Source: a virus
Lineage: Duplodnaviria > Heunggongvirae > Uroviricota > Caudoviricetes
DNA length: 4,771 nt
Strand: one strand, 5' to 3'
IMG/VR virus record: IMGVR_UViG_2703718827_000009
Location: 1 to 4,771 of that record
The position numbers and the translations under genes were made by a program. Shown piece by piece: positions 1 through 702 of the stretch. How positions within the stretch are numbered: position 1 is the stretch's first letter; the number at the start of each line of letters is the position of its first letter. The notes under the pieces are model-generated. The model ran no database searches. It saw only the letters and a list, made by a program, of their open reading frames with translations, and was not told the origin of the DNA.

Positions 1-318
1 TCACACCATCCTGTCGTCTTCGATCGCACTGTTGATGAAGTACGTCACCCTTCCCAACACCTCGACCTCTTCCGCTGCCTCACCTTCTATCGCTTCGCCA
101 TCATCCGTGATTAATGCCCTTCCCCTGAGTTTCGCAAATTGTGTTCGACCGCCGGACAAGATCAATAGCACCTGCCCCTGCACTAACCGGGTAACCGGTT
201 CGATAACCGCAAACCCGGAAGACGTTTCCAGGATGCGGGTATCAATGCCCACACCACAGATGAGTTCCGGTGTCATCCGCTGAGACACGTAATCAGCAGC
301 CGGTGAAGGAAAGCCCAT
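1..318 (-). CDS. UmuD'-like (HumD-like) S24/LexA-family beta-barrel protein; N-terminus in window at 318, 3' end beyond the window edge
   Basis: The product begins M-GFPSPAADYVSQR, matching from memory the segment of E. coli UmuD that follows its RecA-mediated cleavage site (GFPSPAADYVEQR). Later segments (GQVLLILSGGRTQFAKLRGR; EVEVLGRVTYFI) align loosely with the UmuD C-terminal strands. An in-frame stop lies 17 codons upstream (372..370), so no N-terminal arm is encoded. Start ATG 318..316 has a strong SD GGGAGGG 7 nt upstream and overlaps the stop of the upstream ORF (TGATG). Confidence 0.6.
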   Translation of the reverse strand: MGFPSPAADYVSQRMTPELICGVGIDTRILETSSGFAVIEPVTRLVQGQVLLILSGGRTQFAKLRGRALITDDGEAIEGEAAEEVEVLGRVTYFINSAIEDDRMV

Positions 319-557
319 CAGTGAACCCTCCCCATGTTGCGCAGGATCCAGTAGTGATTGTCGGTTCCGTCAGTTGTCTTGTCGGTAAAATCTGGCTGGT
401 AGTACTTTATCCACTCGTTGGCGTCGGCCCGGGTGAAATGCCAGTGGACCTTTGCCAGCTCGCGGATAAAGTCTTCTGTGCGTAAGCACCGGTAGCCCTT
501 GGAGTTTAGCTGTATTGCGGCCACAAATGCGCTGTGAATGTCTGATTGGCGGGGCAT
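318..557 (-). CDS. Small hypothetical protein (79 aa from ATG at 557; the reading frame stays open up to 644), first gene of a putative SOS-regulated pair
   Basis: Open frame 644..318 in the ORF track. The internal ATG at 557 is preferred because the LexA box (572..591) would otherwise lie inside the coding sequence; an AAGAG purine tract sits about 8 nt upstream of it. Its stop is translationally coupled to the downstream UmuD'-like gene. I recognise no family for the product (MPRQSDIHSAFVAAIQLNSKGYRCLRTEDFIRELAKVHWHF...). Confidence 0.45.
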   Translation of the reverse strand: MPRQSDIHSAFVAAIQLNSKGYRCLRTEDFIRELAKVHWHFTRADANEWIKYYQPDFTDKTTDGTDNHYWILRNMGRVH

Positions 558-571
558 GATCTGCACTCTTT

Positions 572-591
572 TACTGTTTTTATATACAGTA
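572..591. promoter_or_regulatory. LexA (SOS) box, TACTGTTTTTATATACAGTA
   Basis: Palindromic CTGT-N8-ACAG with an AT-rich spacer, matching the gammaproteobacterial consensus TACTG(TA)5CAGTA at about 17-18 of 20 positions. It lies 15 nt upstream of the minus-strand ATG at 557 and about 7 nt upstream of a strong plus-strand SD (598..604), in a divergent intergenic region. Confidence 0.7.
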
Positions 592-615
592 GTTTTAAAG
601 GAGGTGCAGATCAAG

Positions 616-696
616 ATGGCTAGGCCTATCAATGGAGCAACCATGAGATTTAGCAGTTTGCGACCGCCGCTCCTCCCTCAAGCGAAACCACCGTGA
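616..696 (+). CDS. Candidate 26-aa small ORF (MARPINGATMRFSSLRPPLLPQAKPP) behind a near-perfect Shine-Dalgarno sequence; speculative
   Basis: AAGGAGGTG at 598..606 is a near-perfect anti-SD complement, followed after an 11-nt spacer by ATG 616 and an open frame to TGA 694..696. It sits directly downstream of the LexA box and upstream of, on the same strand as, the glycosyltransferase gene. The peptide is basic and Pro-rich with no recognisable family; it may equally be a chance ORF. Confidence 0.2.
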   Translation: MARPINGATMRFSSLRPPLLPQAKPP

Positions 697-702
697 TATA
701 TT
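694..702 (+). promoter_or_regulatory. Possible extended -10 element (TGaTATATT) for the glycosyltransferase gene
   Basis: TG at 694..695, one spacer base, then hexamer TATATT at 697..702 (5 of 6 matches to TATAAT). No good -35 is visible. It lies about 30 nt upstream of ATG 732, which has SD AAGGA at 720..724. Confidence 0.3.

Follow-up and report, generated by a model that had tools for sequence, protein, structure and literature searches.

The window, meaning the whole 4,771-bp stretch of viral DNA analyzed here, begins with two genes on the minus strand, read toward its left end. The first (318-557, minus strand, with its ATG at 557) encodes a 79-amino-acid (aa) protein that belongs to PHROG 3893 and is predicted to adopt a winged-helix fold. 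The second (1-318, minus strand) encodes a pre-truncated, 105-aa homologue of UmuD'/HumD that starts M-GFPSPAADYV. The stop codon of the first gene and the start codon of the second share 1 nt (TGATG), and the pair is translationally coupled. A 20-bp palindrome (572-591) lies 14 nt upstream of the 79-aa gene. Beyond it, on the plus strand, follow a GGAGG sequence (600-604), a 26-codon open reading frame (ORF; 616-696), and a divergent "moron," a family 2 glycosyltransferase (GT) gene (732-1913; PF13704, E = 4e-9). This inventory of neighbors, a small ORF and a UmuD'-like ORF on one side and GGAGG, the 26-codon ORF, and the GT gene on the other, agrees with the one given by an earlier sequence-only reading of the same DNA. 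Farther to the right, a GC-rich hairpin with T-runs on either side (AAGGCGGGAAATCCCGCCTT, 1917-1936) forms a bidirectional terminator that separates the convergent GT gene from the last small ORF of the tail operon. Two small overlapping minus-strand ORFs of 53 and 80 aa (1976-2363) are situated downstream of the tail-spike gene; they could be assigned to no family, the search giving a weak match to phrog_18977 only, and related loci carry two or three such ORFs (61, 87, and 80 aa) at the corresponding place. PADLOC returned no credible match.

The palindrome is identified as a LexA operator (SOS box) by its statistics, by its identity to a known operator, and by its conservation. The plus-strand 20-mer at 572-591, TACTGTTTTTATATACAGTA, differs from the perfect palindrome TACTGTATATATATACAGTA at two positions. 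The motif CTGT-N8-ACAG has a single exact match in the window (574-589), with 0.04 matches expected from 200 dinucleotide shuffles, and the shuffled windows contained no match to TACTGTATATATATACAGTA at up to three mismatches. A position weight matrix was built from the 18 SOS boxes that PMC3009722 (Table 4) lists in front of UV-induced E. coli genes; two of these boxes, those of umuD and sbmC, are identical in sequence to the box studied here. The site scores 27.7 bits, or 26.4 bits with umuD and sbmC omitted from the matrix, and falls inside the span of known E. coli SOS boxes (12.8 to 28.2 bits); with the same matrix, the best of 500 shuffles reaches 18.6 bits. Read on the minus strand, the box is TACTGTATATAAAAACAGTA, which equals the umuDC operator of E. 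coli K-12 letter for letter (L004, 329-348; L numbers denote individual loci of the comparison set). The CTGT-N8-ACAG operator that the sequence-only reading had called at 572-591, and for which it had proposed scoring with a LexA matrix, is real: it is unique in the window, and at 26 to 28 bits it stands far above the next-best site, at 5.9 bits.

There is a negligible probability that the palindrome is a chance match, or a hairpin acting in RNA or as a terminator, and no protein-binding site at all. The box is AT-rich and palindromic, and a weak terminator-like match lies nearby (549-564). However, the low number of matches expected by chance, together with a matrix score 8 bits over the best of the shuffles, argues against coincidence, and the RNA hairpin of the palindrome amounts to only -5.4 kcal/mol (z = -1.07). 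In addition, the half-sites are kept and the spacer varies across the 26 variants of the box found in related loci, a pattern that argues for a protein-binding site. The match at 549-564 overlies the ATG of the 79-aa gene and is regarded as fortuitous. An Rfam scan of the window gave no match.

The box appears to be embedded in a promoter of the umuDC type that points toward the gene pair. The minus strand of the window was aligned with the upstream region of K-12 umuD and with three E. coli prophage loci. The alignment follows the pattern ATTGATAG(G/C)C, then (T/C)ATTGATCTGC, 17 bp, and TACTGT inside the box, and promoters homologous to that of umuDC read ATTGATAG.C ... TTGATCTGC, 17 bp, TACTGT. 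On the minus strand of the window, the predicted -10 hexamer is TACTGT (586-591), which forms the first 6 bp of the operator and aligns with that of the umuDC promoter. It is preceded by a 17-bp spacer (592-608) and by the predicted -35 hexamer TTGATC (609-614), which was located both by the umuDC alignment and by promoter scoring. Farther upstream, the block ATTGATAGGC (624-633) has ATTGATAGCC as its counterpart in the umuDC promoter region; this block consists of invariant columns in the alignment with umuDC and recurs in many loci. With weighted hexamers, the minus-strand promoter scores 8.9, the best in the window and within the top 0.02% of positions on both strands; promoter scores of this kind are rough. 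A simple consensus promoter scan called nothing in 540-731, missing the leftward promoter because it matches just 7 of the 12 consensus positions. The leftward promoter is thus assigned from homology to umuDC combined with weighted hexamer scoring. A 47-bp synthetic promoter derived from umuDC, with the same layout, was reported to be tightly SOS inducible (PMC9074414). Given this homology to umuDC, the SOS box would overlap the core promoter of the minus-strand pair. The Shine-Dalgarno sequence of the 79-aa gene, AAGAG (566-570, minus strand), has one base fewer than that of most relatives, AAGGAG. Positions 566-571 read AAAGAG, and nearly all relatives have AAAGGAG or AAGGGAG; this one-base deletion in the ribosome-binding site should weaken translation initiation.

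To see the box in its wider context, 89 related loci (genomes and viral contigs) were compared along with E. coli prophages and named phages. An exact CTGT-N8-ACAG stands 14 to 20 nt before the start codon of the 79-aa gene in 90 of 97 loci. These 90 boxes comprise 26 sequence variants, with constant half-sites and a varying spacer. Among the seven exceptions, the box carries a single mismatch in five, is intact but displaced by an intron in L023, and is absent only from L092. Of 74 distinct upstream sequences, 54 have TTGATC in the -35 register. According to a rough, ORF-based classification, 58 loci have a co-directional tail-fiber or tail-spike gene as their upstream neighbor, 23 have a divergent gene (the GT found here, GtrB-like transferases, or acyltransferases), and 11 have nothing within 700 bp upstream. 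Since the box is kept whatever lies upstream, it travels with the cassette and not with the cargo on the other side. At least 68 loci have the gene starting with MGFPSP in second place, again with a 1-nt overlap, and many of the remaining contigs end at this gene. The sequence-only reading had held that the controlled side could not be decided from sequence. The leftward umuDC-type promoter and the retention of the box with the minus-strand pair in 90 of 97 loci indicate otherwise; on this comparative evidence, the controlled side is the minus-strand pair.

The closest complete relative of the window is the E3 prophage of E. coli, with 91% identity over the whole window. There, a lambdoid prophage ends with the cassette, next to yciB; the rest of the E3 prophage contains no second LexA-like site (best score, 9.4 bits). 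A megablast query of the whole window against phage records returned a 43-bp match only. The cassette itself is found in lambdoid, P22-like, and other backbones, in prophages of E. coli, Leclercia, Enterobacter, Citrobacter, Klebsiella, and Salmonella. Second high-scoring LexA boxes occur about 2 kb downstream of the cassette in L012, L087, and L088 (5292-5311 in all three), L019 (5105-5124), and L079 (5104), presumably in host or neighboring genes; one example is CACTGTTTTTTTATACAGTT, at 22.8 bits.

On the plus strand, the GGAGG at 600-604, previously described as a strong Shine-Dalgarno sequence, falls inside the 17-bp spacer of the predicted leftward promoter and is not conserved. The three closest loci with the same GT gene (E3, L032, and L034) have GTAGA in its place, and the GGAGG does occur in three loci without a divergent gene (L035, L064, and L084). 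For its ATG, the 26-codon ORF uses the complement of the promoter's upstream block. This ORF is open in L034 with 9 of its 26 residues changed, which leaves no sign of purifying selection among the four sequences compared, and the ORF is probably not a gene. As for the GT gene, a candidate extended -10 element, TGaTATATT (694-702, plus strand), has the best plus-strand score (5.6). It lies outside the SOS unit, at a distance of 103 bp from the box, and does not vary among the four loci that carry the GT gene. A transcript starting from it would have a leader of about 22 nt containing AAGGA, and the element is a plausible promoter for the GT gene. Because the GT gene has a conserved candidate extended -10 of its own, LexA control of this gene is unsupported, and the GT gene is probably not controlled by LexA. 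The GT position holds different cargo or none in related loci. The interval that separates the tail-spike genes from the cassette, just ahead of the cassette promoter (700-2370 in the window; also L007-L010, L024, L067, L074, L085, L086, L089, L092, and L093), is a hot spot for exchangeable surface-modification cargo, mostly divergent from the cassette. Besides the GT2 gene found here, this cargo includes GtrB-like bactoprenol glucosyltransferases (MKISLVVPV...) and acyltransferase-3-like proteins.

These observations also bear on a bidirectional arrangement, in which the same LexA dimer would repress a rightward promoter as well, so that the GT gene would be SOS induced too. A candidate for such a promoter can be drawn on the plus strand (-35 TGCACT at 562-567, 17 bp, -10 TACAGT at 585-590; score, 5.5). 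The P1 annotation gives one LexA site to the divergent lxr and humD in a similar geometry, dinI diverges from the same box in phages HK140, HK225, and Eeyore, and in HK140 a good promoter on the opposite strand, TTGACT-17-TATTTT, encloses the box. In the window, however, TGCACT is the complement of the ribosome-binding region of the cassette, a rightward transcript would need a 141-nt leader, and the position of the dinI-type rightward -10 is degenerate (TTTTAA, 592-597). Moreover, loci without a divergent gene keep the box equally well, the GT gene comes with a conserved candidate extended -10 (694-702), and lysogenic-conversion genes are usually expressed in the uninduced lysogen. We therefore consider a bidirectional operator unlikely at this locus and retain leftward control of the gene pair as the preferred reading.

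Mobile elements have inserted at the box in several relatives. L102 (4076-5984) and L023 (about 1076-2985) carry a group II intron, in sense orientation, directly after ...AAAAACAGT, between the positions that correspond to 573 and 572 of the window. The insertion point, after ...TACTGTATATAAAAACAGT, is the 3' edge of the LexA box. The intron, which scores 186.6 bits with Rfam model RF02005, codes for a 494-aa reverse transcriptase/maturase. Its sense orientation at 573/572 in both loci indicates that this point is transcribed leftward. In E. coli AR_0128 (L106), the same intron separates umuD from the umuDC operator on the chromosome, and on plasmid p98219 (L105) it adjoins a umuDC operon. 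A 70-nt junction probe detected the box-intron junction, mostly on plasmids, in 166 of 5,426 complete E. coli genomes. The junction match in AR_0128 begins exactly at the first base of the box, so that the 5' exon sequence in common with the phage copy is limited to the 19-nt box. This pattern suggests that the operator palindrome serves as the homing site of the intron, which may perhaps read the operator as a hairpin, by analogy to class C introns and terminators. No report of a group II intron at LexA boxes was found in the literature. In L104, an ISL3-family element (4656-5971) with a 406-aa transposase sits inside the LexA box, flanked by an 8-bp duplication that corresponds to 578-585 of the window, and parts the cassette from its -35 and -10.

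Of the two cassette products, the 79-aa protein gave an AlphaFold2 model with a pLDDT of 90.4. A Foldseek search with this model yielded no significant match, and the protein has no sequence relative in the PDB. The 105-aa protein belongs to phrog_3469 (E = 4.5e-45) and begins at the equivalent of UmuD Gly25 (M-GFPSPA), without the N-terminal pro-segment. Its residues 2-15 are 86% identical to UmuD residues 25-38, and it starts directly after the position of the Cys24-Gly25 cleavage site. BLASTP and hhalign with a shallow profile matched the protein across its N-terminal 14 to 18 residues only. The HumD model NCBIfam NF051876 gave 28.4 bits over residues 1-19 only, below its cutoff of 120, and the Pfam Peptidase_S24 model matched none of 32 family members. 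An exhaustive profile search recovered 233 representatives of the family (E <= 0.001, 50% cluster level). The profile of this diverse family aligned with HumD/UmuD' over the full length (hhalign probability, 98.8%; E = 7e-17; 107 columns), which justifies the label "UmuD'-like" that had been attached to the ORF at 1-318. The alignment has a gap of approximately 10 to 12 residues where UmuD and HumD carry the loop with the nucleophilic Ser, and the Lys column is kept. Judged by these profiles, the protein is a short, evidently protease-dead member of the pre-processed HumD lineage. Its AlphaFold2 model, from a shallow alignment, has a pLDDT of 44, too low to be of use. Three members of the short HumD-like family have kept traits of ancestral UmuD, namely a UmuD-like pro-segment with the end ...SDSMQC|GF in P0265 and the HPSAT motif in P0348 and P0377. 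They bridge the short family to canonical UmuD. A HumD-like role of the 105-aa product in mutagenesis is uncertain because the Ser loop is absent and the score is far under the HumD cutoff; the product could equally be inhibitory.

Several known systems resemble the locus. The umuDC operon of E. coli shares with it the 20-bp operator, the -35 TTGATC, the 17-bp spacer, the -10 TACTGT, and the upstream ATTGATAG block, and in both cases a umuD-family gene lies downstream of the operator. Unlike umuDC, the cassette has no umuC, and the 79-aa winged-helix gene is interposed as the first cistron. Its UmuD homologue lacks the N-terminal 24 residues and the Ser loop of UmuD, and the leader measures 14 nt, in contrast to 19 nt in umuDC. 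P1 humD, N15 gp26, and phiKO2 gp23 encode pre-processed UmuD' homologues that start with MGFPSPA, as in the window, and have a LexA box 15 to 19 nt before the ATG. The P1 record annotates a LexA binding site 19 nt before the humD ATG, and N15 gp26 and HK140 gp27-gp28 have the same box and promoter as the window. According to a note in the P1 record and the title of McLenigan et al. (1999), cited in PMC4713147, P1 HumD functionally replaces UmuD'. The P1, N15, and phiKO2 proteins are 128 to 129 aa long and UmuD-like over residues 25-139, whereas the protein of the window has 105 aa and falls below the HumD cutoff. P1 and N15 also differ from the window in lacking the 79-aa first gene.

The same two-gene cassette is present in the lambdoid phages HK140 (gp26 DinI, gp27, gp28 UmuD-like), mEp390, Eeyore, and HK225. 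Phages of this HK140 type have the same box, the same promoter, and the same position between the tail-fiber genes and att/int, and their 79-aa protein is 65% identical to that of the window. However, HK140 gp28 is of the long, canonical HumD type, in contrast to the short protein of the window, and dinI diverges from the box where the window has the glycosyltransferase gene. The dinI-divergent boxes lie in HK140 (L097, 1171-1260), HK225 (L095, 2440-2500), and Eeyore (L094), and in phages of the HK140 type one operator probably controls back-to-back promoters. LexA boxes before pre-processed umuD homologues are thus known already from P1, N15, and HK140, and the locus joins them. The new member combines the 79-aa first cistron with the short form of HumD; the papers searched describe neither, and the literature searches returned none on the cassette.

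Taken as a whole, the palindrome very probably serves as LexA operator to a leftward, minus-strand sigma-70 promoter of the umuDC type. We infer that, as long as the lysogen is undamaged, a host LexA dimer sits on 572-591. It would cover the -10 (591-586) and the predicted start site (~579), so that RNA polymerase would be blocked. Upon activation, RecA* would bring about LexA self-cleavage and release a short-leader bicistronic mRNA, encoding the 79-aa winged-helix protein and the coupled 105-aa HumD-like protein. The latter would amount to a UmuD' made already "processed" and without the protease loop. The umuDC operon is among the most tightly repressed and late-induced SOS operons; as operator and core promoter match those of umuDC, the cassette is expected to be tight and late as well. 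Like P1 HumD, its products would likely target the translesion pathway of host UmuC/RecA* during SOS, and the loss of the Ser loop might leave the 105-aa product either activating or interfering. The proposal of the sequence-only reading that accessory genes are switched on by DNA damage, apart from the late-gene program, is consistent with the high quality of the operator and with the isolation of the cassette by the terminator at 1917-1936 and the convergent GT gene.

Non-immunity prophage loci wired to host LexA by the same logic include Gifsy dinI-gfoA/gftA, 186 tum, and N15 antC (PMC3121763). The products of these antirepressor loci are unrelated in kind to those of the window, and the E3 relative has a self-cleaving CI. 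It is very unlikely that the cassette is an antirepressor module under LexA control, akin to Gifsy GfoA/GftA, 186 Tum, or N15 AntC, with a product that triggers induction by inactivating the prophage repressor. The 79-aa protein has no assigned function, and small LexA-controlled genes outside the immunity region do induce Gifsy prophages (PMC3121763). However, the second gene is a UmuD'/HumD homologue and not of an antirepressor type, and Pfam, PHROG, and NCBIfam hold no antirepressor annotation for the cassette products. The cassette is also spread over lambdoid, P22-like, and other backbones. Furthermore, the repressor of the E3 prophage is of the CI type, with an HTH and a Peptidase_S24 domain (E = 2.5e-18), and self-cleaving, which makes a Gifsy-type antirepressor role unnecessary.

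We also considered, as a quite improbable extension of leftward control, that the cassette is not simply a spare UmuD'. The winged-helix protein and the protease-dead UmuD' mimic, made together and only during SOS, could form a new regulator or decoy. The two products together would resemble the two halves of a cleaved LexA/CI-type repressor. Such a decoy might titrate UmuD, UmuC, or RecA*, or its DNA binding might reshape the host SOS response or the cross-talk between prophages.

What had been described as a divergent control region can now be seen as a defined unit, a umuDC-type SOS promoter-operator joined to a widespread, uncharacterized two-gene prophage cassette. The adjacent surface-modifying gene should accordingly not be taken as damage inducible. 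Should the HumD-like product act on Pol V, an extra SOS-wired modulator of mutagenesis would be present in many lysogens, which, if true, would bear on antibiotic-induced mutation.
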